From Shigella phage ESh24: 64,000 bases of DNA. The notes under the pieces were generated by a model. That model made no database searches, was not told the origin of the DNA, and saw nothing but the letters and a program-made list of their open reading frames with translations. Each line of letters begins with the position of its first letter. Positions within the stretch are counted from its first letter, which is position 1. The position numbers were made by a program, and so were the translations under genes. Shown one piece after another: positions 3,686-8,029 of the stretch. The stretch is taken from the sequence record ON528734, one strand, 5' to 3'.

Positions 3686-4204
3686 ATGGCTCACTTTAAT
3701 GAATGTTCACAACTGATCGAAGGCGCTGATAAAGCTCAAAATGAATATTGGGATATTCTCGGTGATGAAAAAGACCCGCTGCAGGTTATGCTTGACATGC
3801 AGAAATCTTTGCAGGTTCGTTTAGCTAAAGATAAACCTGAATATAACCGTCATCCTGATGATTTGGCTACTGCAGGTGAAGTTGTTGATTGGCTGCGTAA
3901 TCAGAAAGATTATATTGACGATGAATTCCGTGAACTTCTGACTTCTCTTGGTGGTATGAGTAATGGTGAAAAAGACGCATCTGCTGTATGGAAACCTTGG
4001 AAGTCGCAGCATGGTGAACGTCGTGAAACTCTGATTACTGATTTGTCTCCACAGGACCAGTTAGAAATCAAATTCGAAATGATTGATATTCTCCATTTTG
4101 TTCTGAACATGTTTCAAGGTCTTGGTCTTACAGCAGAAGAAATCTTTAAACTTTATTATCTGAAAAATGCTGAAAATTTCGCTCGTCAAGACCGAGGTTA
4201 TTAA
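3686..4204 (+). CDS. 56: dCTPase/dUTPase gp56 (MazG-like)
   Basis: ATG at 3686 with RBS AAAGGA; 171 aa; sequence recalled as T4 gp56. Confidence 0.85.
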   Translation: MAHFNECSQLIEGADKAQNEYWDILGDEKDPLQVMLDMQKSLQVRLAKDKPEYNRHPDDLATAGEVVDWLRNQKDYIDDEFRELLTSLGGMSNGEKDASAVWKPWKSQHGERRETLITDLSPQDQLEIKFEMIDILHFVLNMFQGLGLTAEEIFKLYYLKNAENFARQDRGY

Positions 4205-4234
4205 CAGCTCGTCTTAAAAGCCGCGAGAATTTAT

Positions 4235-4242
4235 TATAAATA
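4235..4242 (+). promoter_or_regulatory. late promoter TATAAATA upstream of soc
   Basis: exact TATAAATA about 30 nt upstream of soc ATG. Confidence 0.6.
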
Positions 4243-4272
4243 ATCATGTAATTTAAATAAAAGGAGAATTAC

Positions 4273-4518
4273 ATGGCTAGTACTCGCGGTTATGTTAATA
4301 TCAAAACATTTGAGCAGAAATTAGATGGAAATAAGAAAATTGAAGGAAAGGAAATTTCAGTAGCTTTCCCTCTTTATTCTGACGTTCACAAAATTTCTGG
4401 TGCTCATTACCAGACGTTCCCTTCAGAAAAAGCAGCATATACTACTGTATATGAAGAAAATCAGCGTACTGAATGGATTGCTGCAAACGAAGATTTGTGG
4501 AAAGTAACTGGTGGTTAA
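4273..4518 (+). CDS. soc: small outer capsid protein Soc
   Basis: 80-aa product MASTRGYVNIKTFEQ...; matches T4 Soc as recalled. Confidence 0.9.
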   Translation: MASTRGYVNIKTFEQKLDGNKKIEGKEISVAFPLYSDVHKISGAHYQTFPSEKAAYTTVYEENQRTEWIAANEDLWKVTGG

Positions 4519-4526
4519 TAATTCAA

Positions 4527-4549
4527 GGACTCCTTCGGGAGTCCTTTTT
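4527..4549 (+). terminator. intrinsic terminator hairpin (UUCG tetraloop) after soc
   Basis: GGACTCCTTCGGGAGTCC followed by T-run. Confidence 0.7.
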
Positions 4550-4559
4550 CATTTAAACG

Positions 4560-4589
4560 GTTTACTTTCCAAAATGAGTATGGTATAAT
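4560..4589 (+). promoter_or_regulatory. T4-type early promoter (GTTTAC -35 / TATAAT -10, 18-bp spacing)
   Basis: GTTTAC at 4560-4565, TGGTATAAT at 4581-4589. Confidence 0.6.
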
Positions 4590-4615
4590 AAAATTATCTT
4601 ATAGAGGAGAGCACT

Positions 4616-4828
4616 ATGTTAAATCGTTGGATTAAACCAAATGAAGACCTCCAGAAGGTTCTTGATAAAGCTATCTCTGATAAATGGGGTATGAAAAGCT
4701 GGGATTGCGATGTCGTTACGCATTCATTCATGATGCATGCAGATGGTTCAGTCGAGTTCAATGCTGAAATGCGATACACTGACTGGGGTGGATTTCAAAG
4801 AGTCGAATTTCAAAGAGGCTTTTTGTAA
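4616..4828 (+). CDS. hypothetical protein
   Basis: 70-aa ORF with RBS GAGGAG; first of a 7-ORF array between soc and modB. Confidence 0.5.
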   Translation: MLNRWIKPNEDLQKVLDKAISDKWGMKSWDCDVVTHSFMMHADGSVEFNAEMRYTDWGGFQRVEFQRGFL

Positions 4829-5166
4829 TGTTTATCTTTAATTGGTTTAAAAGTTTCTTTACGGATTTTTTCTCTACGACTCCTGGGGAAGGTGTAGTTC
4901 CTATTTCAAATGACTACCTTCCTTTAACTGTAGTTGAGTATGTTTATATGGGAGATGGAACAGTAGAAGAAGTTACTATGACTTATGAAGAAGCCCAAGA
5001 ATATTATAAAAATCCTTGGCGCTGGTCAGTACCTACATCATCTAACACACAGAATACACAGTCTAGTTCTGATTCATATGATACTAATGTTCCTGTTCAT
5101 GTATGGGCGGGTGATTCATGCGGAAGTTCTTGTGATTCTGGCTGTTCATCTACATCTTGTGATTGA
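4828..5166 (+). CDS. hypothetical protein with Cys/Ser-rich C-terminal tail
   Basis: 112 aa; start overlaps previous stop (TAATG); C-terminus [16 protein letters not shown]. Confidence 0.5.
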
Positions 5167-5174
5167 GGAAAATT

Positions 5175-5660
5175 ATGGAAGCGATTTTGTTTGAAATGTA
5201 TATTAGCAGTAATAGCATGTCGTTTGCTAAAGATGTTCCAATTACTGTAGCCGTAATGATTGATAAGGGTTATTGTGACCCAATGTATCTCGTAGAAAAT
5301 TTCGTTTCAATGCCAGTTCCAGAAGATGCTGAAATAAAACTTAAAAAGATCGGAATTATTGAAACTGTGCCAAATATTCCGTTTAGAGCAATTGAAGCAT
5401 TTACTAAATCCGAATACATTAATGTTAACACAGAAAAATATAATGATAAACCTTTATCTTTCTATTCATATGATTCAGTATATAGTTGGAAAATAGATAA
5501 AGGAAATAAATTTATAATTGTGAGTGAAGACGCTTTATCATACTTTATTTCTTCTGTATGGAATATTTTAAATCCAAATTTGCTAAAAATTCATGAATTT
5601 GACGGTGTCCATACTATTGTTTTAGGTAAAATAAATGAAAGCTCTCAAGAAGATTCTTGA
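5175..5660 (+). CDS. hypothetical protein
   Basis: 161 aa from ATG 5175 with RBS GAGGAAAA (track ORF begins at TTG 5163). Confidence 0.5.
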
Positions 5661-5838
5661 ATGGTTCAATAGACCAAACTCAATGTATATTGATGATGGT
5701 TGGGTTGAACAGGCAAATAAAGAAATGCAGAATGAATCGGAAGAATGGATGAAATCAATGATTAGTGCTGAGAAAGAAAAGAAATTAGAGCGCTCAGCGC
5801 TTAAATTGATGAGAGACATCTATGGGGATAAATCGTGA
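5635..5838 (+). CDS. hypothetical protein
   Basis: 67-aa ORF overlapping end of previous ORF. Confidence 0.4.
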
Positions 5839-5846
5839 ACAAAGAT

Positions 5847-5996
5847 ATGACGTTAGAAGAGGCTAAAGCAAAAGCAAATGAAGCAATGGATTTGCTTCTT
5901 AAAATCGGCAGTAAAATGATGGAAGAAAATGAGAAATATATCCAGGAAAACAAAATTCCCGATGGTCCATTAGTAGGCAAAAGGAAATCACATGAT
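5847..5996 (+). CDS. hypothetical small protein
   Basis: 49-codon ORF filling the gap between flanking ORFs; below track cutoff. Confidence 0.3.
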
Positions 5997-6462
5997 TGAA
6001 GTAGCAAAATTATATTCAATAGAATTTATGTCTAAAGAAGGTAAATCAGTAAATACACTTGATAAAAAATGCTCATTAATTATTCCTTTAGCAGAAAATC
6101 CGGATATTTTAATTAAAGATATAAAAGAAAGAAAATATCCAGAAAATGTTATTCTAATTATAAAGCATACTGAAGATATTTTGCAAAATACAGATTCACC
6201 ATTTTCTTCTTCTGAAGCTTTAACTATTAAAGGCTATAAAAGAGCTCATGAATATGGTCTTTTTGACATGTTTGAAGACGATAAAGTTAAATTAGCGAGT
6301 CAACCTTCTAAAAGTAAAACATTCATTATTGAAGATATTAAAGATATAAATGCATTTGTTAGGATGGTCTGGGCTCATTTTGATGTTGGACTACGCTGGA
6401 GAATGTCCGAAGAAGAAAGAAAGATTGTTGAAGCTAATCGTCAATTTGGTTTTTATCGCTAG
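5992..6462 (+). CDS. hypothetical protein
   Basis: 156-aa ORF. Confidence 0.5.
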
Positions 6463-6470
6463 GAATTAAT

Positions 6471-6653
6471 ATGGATTTATTTGAGATGTTAGAAGATAAT
6501 CATTCTACGAATAACCAGAATGATTCTAGTGATTATAAGAAAGAGTACCGTATAGTATTACAGAATTATGGAATTGAAGCCCCAGATGCTCTTCTAGAAG
6601 AACTAGCTTCATACCATCTTGACCCTCCGCCTTGGGCTCCCTGGGCAAAATAA
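6471..6653 (+). CDS. hypothetical small acidic protein
   Basis: 60-aa ORF. Confidence 0.4.
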   Translation: MDLFEMLEDNHSTNNQNDSSDYKKEYRIVLQNYGIEAPDALLEELASYHLDPPPWAPWAK

Positions 6654-6664
6654 TTCAAAAAGTT

Positions 6665-6694
6665 GTTTACTTTCCTTTCTAACGATGATATGAT
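6665..6694 (+). promoter_or_regulatory. T4-type early promoter upstream of modB
   Basis: GTTTAC 6665-6670, TATGAT 6689-6694. Confidence 0.55.
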
Positions 6695-6720
6695 AGCTTC
6701 TGAAGTATACGGAGGCTATC

Positions 6721-7344
6721 ATGATTATTAATCCTGCAGATGTTGAACAGTTATCTATAAAAGCTGAAAGCGTTGATTTTCAATATGATATGTATAAAAA
6801 AGTCTGTGAAAAATTTACTGACTTTGAGCAGTCTGTTCTTTGGCAATGTATGGAAGCCAAAAAGAATGAAGCTCTTCACAGACAGTTGAATAAAATCATT
6901 AAAAAGCATTTAACTAAATCGCCATATCAGTTATATCGTGGTATATCAAAATCGACAAAAGAGCTCATTAAAGATTTACAAGTTGGAGAAGTGTTTTCAA
7001 CGAACAGAGTAGATTCATTTACTACTAGTTTGCACACAGCATGCGGTTTTTCTTATGTTGAGTATTTCACTGAAATAATATTTCGCTTAAAAACTGATAA
7101 AGCTTTTAATTACTCTGACCATATCAGCGATATTATACTTTCTTCTCCTAATACTGAGTTTAAGTACACGTATGAAGATACTGATGGGTTAGATTCAGAA
7201 AGAACTGATAACTTAATGATGATTGTGCGTGAACAAGAATGGATGATTCCAATTGGAAAGTATAAAATAACTTCTATTTCAAAAGAAAAATTACACGATT
7301 CATTTGGAACATTTAAAGTGTATGATATTGAGGTAGTTGAATGA
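6721..7344 (+). CDS. modB: ADP-ribosyltransferase ModB
   Basis: 207 aa; R-S-E ART signature (YRG, STN, EQEWMIP); order and length match T4 ModB. Confidence 0.7.
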   Translation: MIINPADVEQLSIKAESVDFQYDMYKKVCEKFTDFEQSVLWQCMEAKKNEALHRQLNKIIKKHLTKSPYQLYRGISKSTKELIKDLQVGEVFSTNRVDSFTTSLHTACGFSYVEYFTEIIFRLKTDKAFNYSDHISDIILSSPNTEFKYTYEDTDGLDSERTDNLMMIVREQEWMIPIGKYKITSISKEKLHDSFGTFKVYDIEVVE

Positions 7345-7943
7345 AATACTCAGTAATGCAATTAAAAGATTTTAAAATAAAATCAATGGATGCATCGGTG
7401 CGTGCTTCTATTCGTGAAGAATTACTTTCTGAAGGGTTTAATTTATCTGAAATTGAACTTTTAATTCATTGTATTACCAACAAACCAGATGACCATACTT
7501 GGTTAAATGAAATAATTAAATCTCGTTTGGTTCCAAACGATAAACCTCTTTGGAGAGGTGTTCCAGCTGAGACTAAGCAGGTGTTAAATCAAGGAATTGA
7601 TATTATTACATTTGATAAAGTCGTATCAGCTTCATATGATAAAAATATAGCTCTACATTTTGCTTCCGGTTTAGAGTATAACACACAGGTTATTTTTGAA
7701 TTCAAAGCTCCTATGGTATTCAATTTCCAGGAGTATGCTATAAAAGCTCTACGCTGTAAAGAATACAATCCAAACTTTAAGTTTCCGGATAGCCATCGTT
7801 ATCGTAATATGGAATTAGTTTCAGATGAACAAGAAGTAATGATACCAGCTGGAAGTGTATTTAGAATTGCAGATAGATATGAGTATAAAAAGTATTCAAC
7901 ATACACTATCTATACTCTTGATTTTGAAGGATTTAATCTATAA
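7341..7943 (+). CDS. modA: ADP-ribosyltransferase ModA
   Basis: 200 aa; LWRG, SAS, EQEVMIP motifs; paralog of adjacent ModB. Confidence 0.7.
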   Translation: MKYSVMQLKDFKIKSMDASVRASIREELLSEGFNLSEIELLIHCITNKPDDHTWLNEIIKSRLVPNDKPLWRGVPAETKQVLNQGIDIITFDKVVSASYDKNIALHFASGLEYNTQVIFEFKAPMVFNFQEYAIKALRCKEYNPNFKFPDSHRYRNMELVSDEQEVMIPAGSVFRIADRYEYKKYSTYTIYTLDFEGFNL

Positions 7944-7999
7944 TGGAAGGACTTAGATTCATTATACCACGAAAGTTTTAAAGCATTTTACATAAAGTT

Positions 8000-8029
8000 G
8001 TTTACAAGTTAAAGTAAAAATGTTATAGT
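8000..8029 (+). promoter_or_regulatory. T4-type early promoter upstream of srd
   Basis: GTTTAC 8000-8005, TATAGT 8024-8029. Confidence 0.5.

Follow-up and report, generated by a model that had tools for sequence, protein, structure and literature searches.

Gene content of the soc–modB interval

The window (the whole stretch of DNA analysed, 64,000 nucleotides of Shigella phage ESh24, sequence record ON528734) belongs to a Tequatrovirus, i.e. a T4-like phage. Between the late gene soc on one side and modB and modA, which encode ADP-ribosyltransferases, on the other, positions 4616–6653 of its plus strand are tiled by seven consecutive open reading frames (ORFs), as the initial annotation had described.

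The mrh.2 ortholog (4616–4828, 70 aa) matches PHROG 1873 and is covered in relatives by the Pfam family Phage_T4_Y01J; its allele diverges from that of T4 (59 % identity, 70 aa here and 68 aa in T4) and is found at 99–100 % identity in the loci of relatives (L008/L012). The mrh.1 ortholog (4828–5166, 112 aa) belongs to Pfam DUF7206 and PHROG 2031. The mrh ortholog starts at an ATG (5175–5660, 161 aa) and belongs to Pfam T4_MRH; this gene is hyper-polymorphic among Tequatroviruses. The srh ortholog (5635–5838, 67 aa) matches PHROG 2441, described as "decoy of host sigma32". It is followed by the modA.4 ortholog (5835–5999, 54 aa), which has a GTG start, by the modA.3 ortholog (5992–6462, 156 aa), which encodes a second paralogue of the T4_MRH family, and by the modA.2 ortholog (6471–6653, 60 aa), whose product matches PHROG 1647 and, in relatives, the Pfam family Phage_T4_Y01E. 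Mrh.2, Mrh.1, ModA.4 and ModA.2 are without assigned function.

Six of the lengths given in the initial annotation stand (70, 112, 161, 67, 156 and 60 aa). The fifth ORF, put there at 49 aa, comprises 54 aa if read from GTG 5835 and 50 aa if read from ATG 5847. At the conserved start position of modA.4, where T4 and every relative read ATGA, ESh24 carries GTG; from its sequence, we take the fifth gene to start at GTG 5835.

The longest ORF on the opposite strand within the interval has 72 aa, and all seven products match PHROG families (1873, 2031, 1234, 2441, 2681, 1647) with E ≤ 1e-31; for both reasons the seven ORFs are not regarded as chance occurrences. Some of the short ones (54, 60, 67 or 70 aa) might still be suspected to be chance ORFs of AT-rich DNA, given their length and given that those of 70, 54 and 60 aa have no match in the local Pfam copy. 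This is extremely improbable, as a PHROG match exists for each, each is kept at 42–89 % amino acid identity in T4-like lineages with diverged DNA, and two have relatives that fall within the newer Pfam families Y01J and Y01E. Among Pfam families, DUF7206 was matched once and T4_MRH twice, and the NCBIfam search gave no meaningful match.

An alternative-frame ORF inside mrh.1 (4985–5194, 69 aa) was considered as a further gene and rejected: it is closed in the loci of distant homologs, and its being open in close relatives reflects no more than a DNA identity of about 96 %. In P0006 and L013, mrh.1 is frameshifted and enters or crosses this frame.

Correspondence with phage T4

The T4 record holds exactly seven CDS in the soc–modB interval (NC_000866, 13198–15232), and not about five, as the initial annotation had assumed. 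Aligned pairwise and end to end, they correspond one-to-one to the ORFs of the window with gene order kept, at amino acid identities of 58.6, 96.5, 75.8, 97.0, 98.1, 96.2 and 100 % from mrh.2 to modA.2, so that five of the seven proteins are 96–100 % identical. In both phages the seven genes lie between soc and modB, on the strand common to both; the inter-cistronic layout, the upstream early promoter and the soc terminator are likewise as in T4. The same seven CDS are present in a closely related annotated phage, all seven genes were found at this position in the T4/Tequatrovirus references checked, and at least 80 % of the region is covered in 494 phage records, nearly all of them Tequatrovirus.

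Differences from T4 include the mrh.2 allele, the mrh allele (76 % identical), the modA.4 start (GTG here, ATG in T4), one residue fewer in Mrh.1, whose tail reads SGC here and SSC in T4, and the gene segF, which T4 carries between 56 and soc and which ESh24 lacks at that place.

The initial annotation had raised the possibility of gene gain or loss, in the sense of a locally novel micro-gene insertion by which two ORFs were gained here or lost in T4. The figure of about five T4 ORFs was its sole basis as far as T4 is concerned. More distant T4-like lineages do differ in which genes they have and in their order: one MRH copy in place of two is found in some, an additional ORF of 82 aa in others, and in others again MRH follows the homologs of srh and modA.4. 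Against this, each of the seven T4 CDS aligns over its full length with one ORF of the window, and the junction distances are the same as in T4. Gain or loss relative to T4 is refuted by the T4 record and the pairwise alignments, and the likelihood that we would still assign to such an insertion is negligible.

The interval 4616–6653 is best explained, with high confidence, as the orthologue of the T4 early cluster mrh.2-mrh.1-mrh-srh-modA.4-modA.3-modA.2. It has the textbook T4 layout, which is already known, and each of its ORFs is already in a curated family. All seven genes were non-essential in a T4 transposon screen; the cluster is a non-essential host-takeover block.

Junctions, early promoter and probable transcription unit

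The seven cistrons are separated by junctions of −1, +8, −26, −4, −8 and +8 nt, which are the same in T4. The initial annotation had described them as joined by overlapping stop and start codons (TAATG, ATGA). Two such short overlaps are present, namely TAATG at the mrh.2/mrh.1 junction (4826–4830, −1 nt) and GTGA, not ATGA, at the srh/modA.4 junction (5835–5838, −4 nt). The remaining junctions are of other kinds: a 26-nt overlap of mrh and srh, an 8-nt overlap of modA.4 and modA.3 (ATGATTGA, 5992–5999), and two 8-nt gaps, each with a Shine-Dalgarno sequence. Judged by sequence, the spacing is tight enough for translational coupling.

Upstream of the block, a terminator-like hairpin follows soc on the plus strand (4525–4546). 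It has a 9-bp GC-rich stem, a UUCG loop and a T-run, a minimum free energy of −15.1 kcal/mol (z = −5.1), and is essentially identical in T4. Just past it lies a T4-type early promoter of the sigma-70 type (4561–4589, plus strand; GTTTACT-17-TGGTATAAT), which matches 10 of 12 positions and has an extended −10 element (TG). Its hexamers read TTTACT-17-TATAAT with a TG extension, and its place agrees with that of the promoter given in the initial annotation (4560–4589). It is conserved in T4 upstream of mrh.2. In the T4 literature, mrh, srh, modA and modB lie downstream of the early promoters Pe15.0 and Pe12.8; by inference, the promoter at 4561–4589 probably equals T4 Pe15.0.

The view of the array as one block likewise holds: it is compact, lies on one strand behind a T4-type early promoter, and no terminator-like site was found on the plus strand inside the seven cistrons. 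A weak MotA-box-like site at 5890–5917 could add a middle-mode start within the block, which counts against a single transcript. Unmodified host sigma-70 RNA polymerase is offered an early promoter just past the soc terminator hairpin. Taken with the T4 arrangement, these features suggest that one immediate-early polycistronic RNA would serve all seven cistrons, and that ribosomes may move from cistron to cistron by coupling or re-initiation.

A proposed masking hairpin in the modB leader

A second early-type promoter lies next to modB on the plus strand (6666–6694; GTTTACT-17-TATGAT). It is identical in T4, and all lineages keep its GTTTAC and its −10 hexamer. Folding and covariation point to an RNA hairpin at 6684–6729 (plus strand), in which the −10 region of this proximal promoter is paired with the modB Shine-Dalgarno sequence (GGAGG) and AUG. 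The long leader folds at −22.3 kcal/mol (z = −3.4), and a leader that begins at about position 6701 at −1.7 kcal/mol. Across the 18 pairs of the hairpin, 92 % of cells are paired, as compared with 35–47 % when the partner is slid. Compensatory double changes occur in 5 of the 18 pairs; 18 double-change cells were observed versus 6.9 ± 2.6 after shuffling, and none of 500 shuffles reached the observed number. In the predicted fold, a stable helix encloses the Shine-Dalgarno sequence and AUG, and its 5′ arm precedes the start site of the proximal promoter.

This structure and its covariation suggest that, in read-through RNA, the conserved hairpin would sequester the Shine-Dalgarno sequence and AUG of modB. 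RNA started at the proximal promoter would be without the 5′ arm, and translation of modB and modA may depend chiefly on their own promoter. The hairpin would, as predicted from sequence, mark the translational end of the transcription unit of the array.

Masked translation-initiation regions are known in T4 for e, soc, 49 and I-TevI, where the read-through RNA is masked and the RNA from a promoter internal to the hairpin is open (PMC3014915). The modB leader resembles them in its logic: the arm that pairs with the Shine-Dalgarno sequence and AUG lies upstream and is left off transcripts started at the proximal promoter. In examples of the e/soc/49/I-TevI type, the promoter inside the hairpin is a late one, whereas in the modB leader it is early, of the sigma-70 type, and its own −10 hexamer lies in the 5′ arm. 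modB is absent from the examples listed in the 2010 review (PMC3014915).

Mrh, ModA.3 and Srh

Mrh and ModA.3 both match the family T4_MRH (PF24070) over its full length, Mrh with 142.7 bits (E = 1e-41) and ModA.3 with 130.8 bits (E = 4e-38), at a threshold of 24.4 bits. The two proteins share just 22 % identity; ModA.3 is a distant Mrh paralogue. Of the pair, Mrh alone is linked to a genetic phenotype in T4. An AlphaFold2 model of Mrh built on an alignment of 22 sequences reached a mean pLDDT of 40, which is too poor for fold searches. Compared with PDB chain sequences, Srh, Mrh and ModA.3 gave nothing below E = 0.2, the best match of Srh having E = 7.4.

BLASTP of Srh against Escherichia coli RpoH displays a weak, local similarity (32 % identity over 38 aa, RpoH 244–279, pairwise E = 7e-4) and a second match of 13 aa (RpoH 139–151, E = 0.19). 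According to T4 genetics, late transcription under heat shock (42 °C) and in rpoH (sigma-32) mutants is modulated by mrh and srh (PMC6070864). Following the T4 annotation, Srh is postulated to be a decoy of sigma-32, for which old genetics and the weak local similarity are the grounds. Full-text searching of the literature returned no phage papers on mrh.1 or modA.3.

Mrh.1 and its Cys/Ser tail

Mrh.1 matches DUF7206 (PF23836) with 100.9 bits at a cutoff of 25.6, its residues 3–112 covering positions 1–107 of the 107 of the profile. Features common to the family are an N-terminal helix, a TPGEG...P motif, a further motif of 11 residues and a tail ending in CD. Mrh.1 is a small and very acidic protein (net charge −12), in which we distinguish four parts: an amphipathic helix at the N-terminus, a beta-hairpin with the conserved sequence EYVYMGDG, a linker that is variable and disordered, and the conserved tail of Ser, Asp and Cys. 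The amphipathic moment of residues 2–16 is exceeded by 2.8 % of shuffles.

The Cys-rich end of the 112-aa protein, which according to the initial annotation could bind metal or form disulfides, is present as described; the Ser/Asp/Cys tail comprises residues 94–112 (codons at 5107–5163 on the plus strand). Throughout the family, C102, C111 and the C-terminal D112 of this tail are unchanged. The tail is present in T4 Mrh.1, and homologs of 43–60 % identity at the syntenic loci of other T4-like lineages have it in a reduced form, SC[DG]…[SG]CD. Two Cys and the C-terminal CD are invariant in every homolog recovered; in these the conserved Cys are spaced by 6–9 residues, with SC[DG]x5-9[SG]CD-COOH as the form of the motif. 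Tequatroviruses have four Cys (CxxxCxxxCxxxxC), whereas other T4-like lineages have two, often with a longer linker. Between the beta-hairpin and the tail nearly everything has changed in homologs, the linker being hypervariable and taking insertions of 50 aa. These distant relatives were reached by exhaustive phmmer and a scan of viral contigs; a word-indexed search yielded close relatives only.

In structure prediction, the N-terminal helix and hairpin were modelled and the tail was predicted to be disordered. AlphaFold2 places helices at residues 3–14 and 53–61 and a hairpin at 34–52, with pLDDT below 50 for residues 69–112; the mean pLDDT of 54.8 is too poor for fold searches. The Mrh.1 profile found nothing below E = 0.2 among PDB chain sequences. 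A transmembrane or secreted Mrh.1, in which disulfides could form, was rejected, the N-terminal segment being short, amphipathic, furnished with Lys and Asp, and about 10 residues long in relatives. A beta-clamp-binding motif was likewise rejected: the N-terminal spacing LxxLF does not match QLxLF, which we take to be the form of that motif.

As Mrh.1 has neither a signal peptide nor a transmembrane segment and is, as far as its sequence indicates, probably cytoplasmic, disulfides in the tail are unlikely, and the tail is probably not a disulfide module. Concerning metal, the tail lacks the Cys pattern of structural zinc-binding or zinc-ribbon sites, which have two CxxC or CxxC/CxxH knuckles of conserved spacing in a folded module; it reads CxxxCxxxCxxxxC. 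Conservation of only two of the four Cys, their varying spacing, the predicted disorder and the lack of a match to metal-binding families (DUF7206 is the sole Pfam match of Mrh.1) count against a defined metal site. A flexible set of thiolate and carboxylate ligands for a metal ion or Fe-S cluster, possibly formed across a dimer, is our best guess, if a rather doubtful one.

The gene that bears the tail is not indispensable, as T4 mrh.1 tolerated insertions at 31 of 31 sites in the transposon screen. In the genome-wide T4 CRISPRi-ART knockdown in DH10B, mrh.1 was weakly "Semi-Fit", and no other gene of the block gave a fitness signal. Quite possibly, the tail is a low-complexity, disordered appendage rich in acidic residues and Ser (a spacer, a solubility tail, or a generic protein- or DNA-mimicking surface), the Cys of which have no specific chemistry and number four by drift from Ser to Cys. 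The pLDDT below 50, the lineage-dependent number (two or four) and spacing of the Cys, the hypervariable adjoining linker and the tolerated insertions all agree with such an appendage; the invariance of two Cys and the C-terminal Cys-Asp down to 43 % identity would be unexpected for a spacer.

The invariant tail might instead be a real functional module, presented by the N-terminal helix and hairpin, that captures a metal ion or Fe-S cluster through flexible thiolate and carboxylate ligands or contacts a host factor covalently or through its thiols. Such a module would explain the weak fitness signal of mrh.1, and we put it forward as a proposal that is, on the whole, unlikely to be correct.

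In composition, the tail resembles what we take to be typical of azole- or thioether-containing peptide cores. A core rich in Cys, Ser, Gly and Asp stands at the extreme C-terminus, after a conserved leader-like N-domain, and might on composition alone be read as a peptide substrate or mimic, i.e. a RiPP-like core or a pseudo-substrate of a host enzyme that acts on Cys/Ser-rich tails. This is highly improbable, as no YcaO, radical SAM or LanM-type enzyme was found in the cluster or its flanks in the lineages examined, and no precursor family was matched in Pfam or NCBIfam.

Biological implications

This analysis corrects the number of genes assumed for the T4 interval to seven. The Cys tail is a conserved signature of the uncharacterised family DUF7206, and mrh.1 is a reasonable, if small, target for biochemistry. 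If true, a functional tail module would assign a role to a family that is conserved across several T-even-like lineages. The proposed masking hairpin ahead of modB suggests how the toxic ADP-ribosyltransferases may be uncoupled from the upstream operon.

Gene content of the soc-modB interval

Positions 4200-6800 matched 555 phage records by megablast (494 with at least 80 % query coverage), nearly all of them Tequatrovirus and the best 96.7 % identical; the phage is T4-like. ORF listing and direct reading bear out seven consecutive + strand ORFs at 4616-6653, preceded by dam, gene 56 and soc (4273-4518) and followed by modB (6721-7344) and modA (7341-7943). The initial annotation put the T4 interval at about five ORFs and suggested possible gene gain or loss. 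In the annotated T4 record (NC_000866, 13198-15232), soc and modB are separated by exactly seven CDS, in the order mrh.2, mrh.1, mrh, srh, modA.4, modA.3, modA.2. Each ORF of the window aligns end to end with one of these T4 proteins, in identical order and with identities of 58.6 %, 96.5 %, 75.8 %, 97.0 %, 98.1 %, 96.2 % and 100 %, respectively. Given this one-to-one correspondence, nothing has been gained or lost relative to T4, and the number of about five does not hold. The closely related annotated phage Jbel has the same seven CDS. The array is thus the ordinary, already known T4 mrh.2-modA.2 early cluster.

T4 differs from this phage in carrying the homing endonuclease gene segF between 56 and soc; here segF is absent and soc directly follows 56 (4205-4272). 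In the non-Tequatrovirus loci examined (L003, L004, L006, L007, L014-L020) the order is mrh.2, mrh.1, srh-like, modA.4-like, one or two MRH copies, modA.2-like and two Mod genes. Some have an extra 82-aa ORF after the modA.2-like gene, and two larger genomes (L019, L020) are missing the srh and modA.4 homologs. Judged from these sequences, the gene content of the interval varies among T4-like lineages, not between this phage and T4.

Many deposited genomes matching 4200-6800 label the modA.2, modA.3 and modA.4 homologs 'molybdenum ABC transporter, periplasmic molybdenum-binding protein', a name that seems to stem from confusion with the like-named E. coli modA, and a few records label Mrh.1 'prohead assembly scaffold protein'.

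Junctions and transcription signals

The six junction distances are -1, +8, -26, -4, -8 and +8 nt, and T4 coordinates give the same values. Joining by overlapping stop/start codons, initially proposed for the whole array, holds at two junctions only (TAATG, 4826-4830; GTGA, 5835-5838); of the other four, two are longer overlaps, of 26 nt and of 8 nt (ATGATTGA), and two are gaps of 8 nt that contain an SD sequence. All are probably close enough for translational coupling or re-initiation. Six of the seven ORF lengths reported initially were right, the exception being the fifth, given as 49 aa. In T4 and the relatives examined, modA.4 starts in the context ...GGRGATAAATC-ATG-A, overlapping the srh stop; in the window and in contig L010 this conserved start codon is GTG (5835), which yields a 54-aa product, and the first in-frame ATG (5847) would yield 50 aa.

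The best promoter-like match of the region, TTTACT-17-TATAAT with a TG extension at 4561-4589, agrees with the promoter initially placed at 4560-4589. T4 keeps both this site and a GC-rich hairpin with a T-run 3' of soc (4525-4546; -15.1 kcal/mol, z = -5.1). No + strand terminator-like site was found within the array. A second early-type promoter, GTTTACT-17-TATGAT, lies at 6666-6694, where 67 nt separate modA.2 from modB. The T4 literature names two early promoters here, Pe15.0 and Pe12.8, and includes mrh, srh, modA and modB in the genes downstream of them; we infer that 4561-4589 is Pe15.0 and 6666-6694 is Pe12.8. The only late-promoter box reported (TATAAATA) is at 4235, upstream of soc. 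Within modA.4, a weak MotA-box-like site at 5890-5917 (TTTGCTTCT, differing from the box consensus at one position, then 12 nt and TAAAAT) might be a candidate middle promoter for modA.3 and modA.2.

Protein families, variation and function

Existing families take in all seven products: Mrh.2 (PHROG 1873), Mrh.1 (DUF7206 / PHROG 2031), Mrh and ModA.3 (both T4_MRH / PHROG 1234), Srh (PHROG 2441), ModA.4 (PHROG 2681) and ModA.2 (PHROG 1647). In relatives, homologs of Mrh.2 and ModA.2 fall under the newer Pfam models Phage_T4_Y01J and Phage_T4_Y01E, respectively. Mrh and ModA.3, 22 % identical, are distant paralogues.

Srh residues 23-60 align weakly to E. coli RpoH 244-279 (32 % over 38 aa, pairwise E = 7e-4), near the RpoH C-terminus in what we take to be region 4.2, and residues 1-13 align to RpoH 139-151 (E = 0.19); among PDB sequences the best match to Srh has E = 7.4. 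The T4 record annotates Srh as a postulated sigma-32 decoy, and the similarity to RpoH, weak as it is, is suggestive of this old proposal.

DNA identity to T4 is mosaic, 95-100 % over most of 4285-8000 with dips to 67-86 % across mrh.2 (4584-4883) and 79-88 % across mrh (5181-5580). Clustering at 90 % identity divides the Mrh proteins of Tequatroviruses into 109 groups, which span 72-96 % identity, and the Mrh.1 proteins into only a handful; mrh.2 has two allele types, of 70 aa (window) and 68 aa (T4). Both mrh.2 and mrh look like recombining or diversifying loci, which would fit an arms-race role.

Functions of the array genes are taken solely from T4 genetics. In that phage, mrh and srh both influence late transcription, at 42 degrees C as well as in rpoH mutants, and T4 can do without the region (PMC6070864). 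A transposon screen of T4 found none of the seven genes to be essential, insertions being tolerated at every usable site: mrh 56/56, mrh.1 31/31, mrh.2 16/16, srh 9/9, modA.2 19/19, modA.3 48/48 and modA.4 10/10 (bioRxiv 10.1101/2025.11.20.689424 supplement). CRISPRi-ART scored mrh.1 'Semi-Fit' (0.79, p = 0.069) and the other six 'Not Fit', and its authors highlight mrh.1 among unknown-function genes of interest (PMC11879866 supplement).

Mrh.1 and its C-terminal tail

By tblastn, with the tail clipped by the low-complexity filter, 501 phage records contain Mrh.1; the great majority are T-even-type phages of Escherichia, Shigella, Yersinia and Salmonella. Homologs of 43-60 % identity, and weaker ones, were added by exhaustive phmmer searching and by scanning viral contigs; these distant homologs belong to other T4-like lineages, in which the locus is syntenic (soc, Y01J, DUF7206, srh-like, modA.4-like, one or two MRH, Y01E, Mod, Mod). 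Invariant in all homologs are M1, K8, F11, P19, P25, E37-Y-x-Y-M-G-D-G44, E47 and V49, and, in the tail, S97, S101, C102, S107, S108, C111 and D112; this gives the tail the conserved form ...[WY]xGDS...SC[DG]x5-9[SG]CD-COOH. The Cys/Ser tail of the 112-aa protein, noticed initially, thus stands: it ends Mrh.1 of both T4 and the window and recurs in distant homologs, with two Cys and the C-terminal Cys-Asp invariant and four Cys in the Tequatrovirus form only. We conclude that it is a real, conserved feature of a catalogued but uncharacterised family.

The linker between hairpin and tail is hypervariable, with a ~50-aa insertion in P0003 (the 164-aa Mrh.1 of Escherichia phage 235Ecol030PP; …EKAGNVGAGALPLNSKKLKEHL…) and in the L014-L018 type. 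The P0003 insertion shares homology with the linker found in non-Tequatrovirus homologs (compared with L014-L016), which suggests intragenic recombination between lineages. Frameshifted mrh.1 copies occur in a metagenomic contig (L013, 2095-2428) and in one deposited genome (P0006); the frameshifts may have arisen in sequencing, or the copies may be natural pseudogenes, and either origin would fit dispensability of mrh.1.

AlphaFold2 on a shallow alignment gave a low-confidence model (mean pLDDT 54.8) with helix 3-14, a beta-hairpin (34-40 and 46-52) and helix 53-61, the rest being disordered. Residues 2-16 are amphipathic (hydrophobic moment 0.45, reached by 2.8 % of shuffles), and the net charge is -12. 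Mrh.1 lacks both a signal peptide and a TM segment, which makes a cytoplasmic location probable and disulfides unlikely. Mrh.1 matched no metal-binding family and no solved structure. Binding of metal or Fe-S by the tail, perhaps across a dimer in two-Cys forms, is possible, if rather unlikely in our view; a functionally looser disordered tail, which the model would allow and to which the invariant positions are less easily fitted, is somewhat more plausible, short of even odds.

A proposed masked start in the modB leader

The modA.2-modB spacer also has a long RNA hairpin at 6684-6729 (within 6661-6735), which pairs the -10 hexamer of the modB-proximal promoter and downstream bases (5' arm) with the SD GGAGG and the modB AUG (3' arm). 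The long modB leader has a folding energy of -22.3 kcal/mol (z = -3.4), and a leader beginning at ~6701 is unstructured (-1.7 kcal/mol). Each of the T4-like lineages recovered (L003, L004, L007, L008, L015, L017-L020) has the same arrangement ahead of its first Mod gene, in a different sequence. In a 10-sequence alignment, 92 % of cells of the 18-bp helix are paired, compared with 35-47 % when the partner is slid, and double changes are seen at five pairs; in one of them, -10 position 4 (G/A) covaries with the second base upstream of the modB AUG (C/U). The observed covariation score was reached by 0/500 shuffles.

The principle is that of the masked initiation regions already known in T4 for e, soc, 49 and I-TevI (PMC3014915); that 2010 review does not name modB as one of them. 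In a read-through RNA of the seven genes, the modB SD and AUG would be masked and modB would not be efficiently translated, and in an RNA begun at the proximal promoter the start would be open. Mod ADP-ribosyltransferases are toxic (PMC3014915); with the modB start so masked, these enzymes would be expressed from their own promoter.
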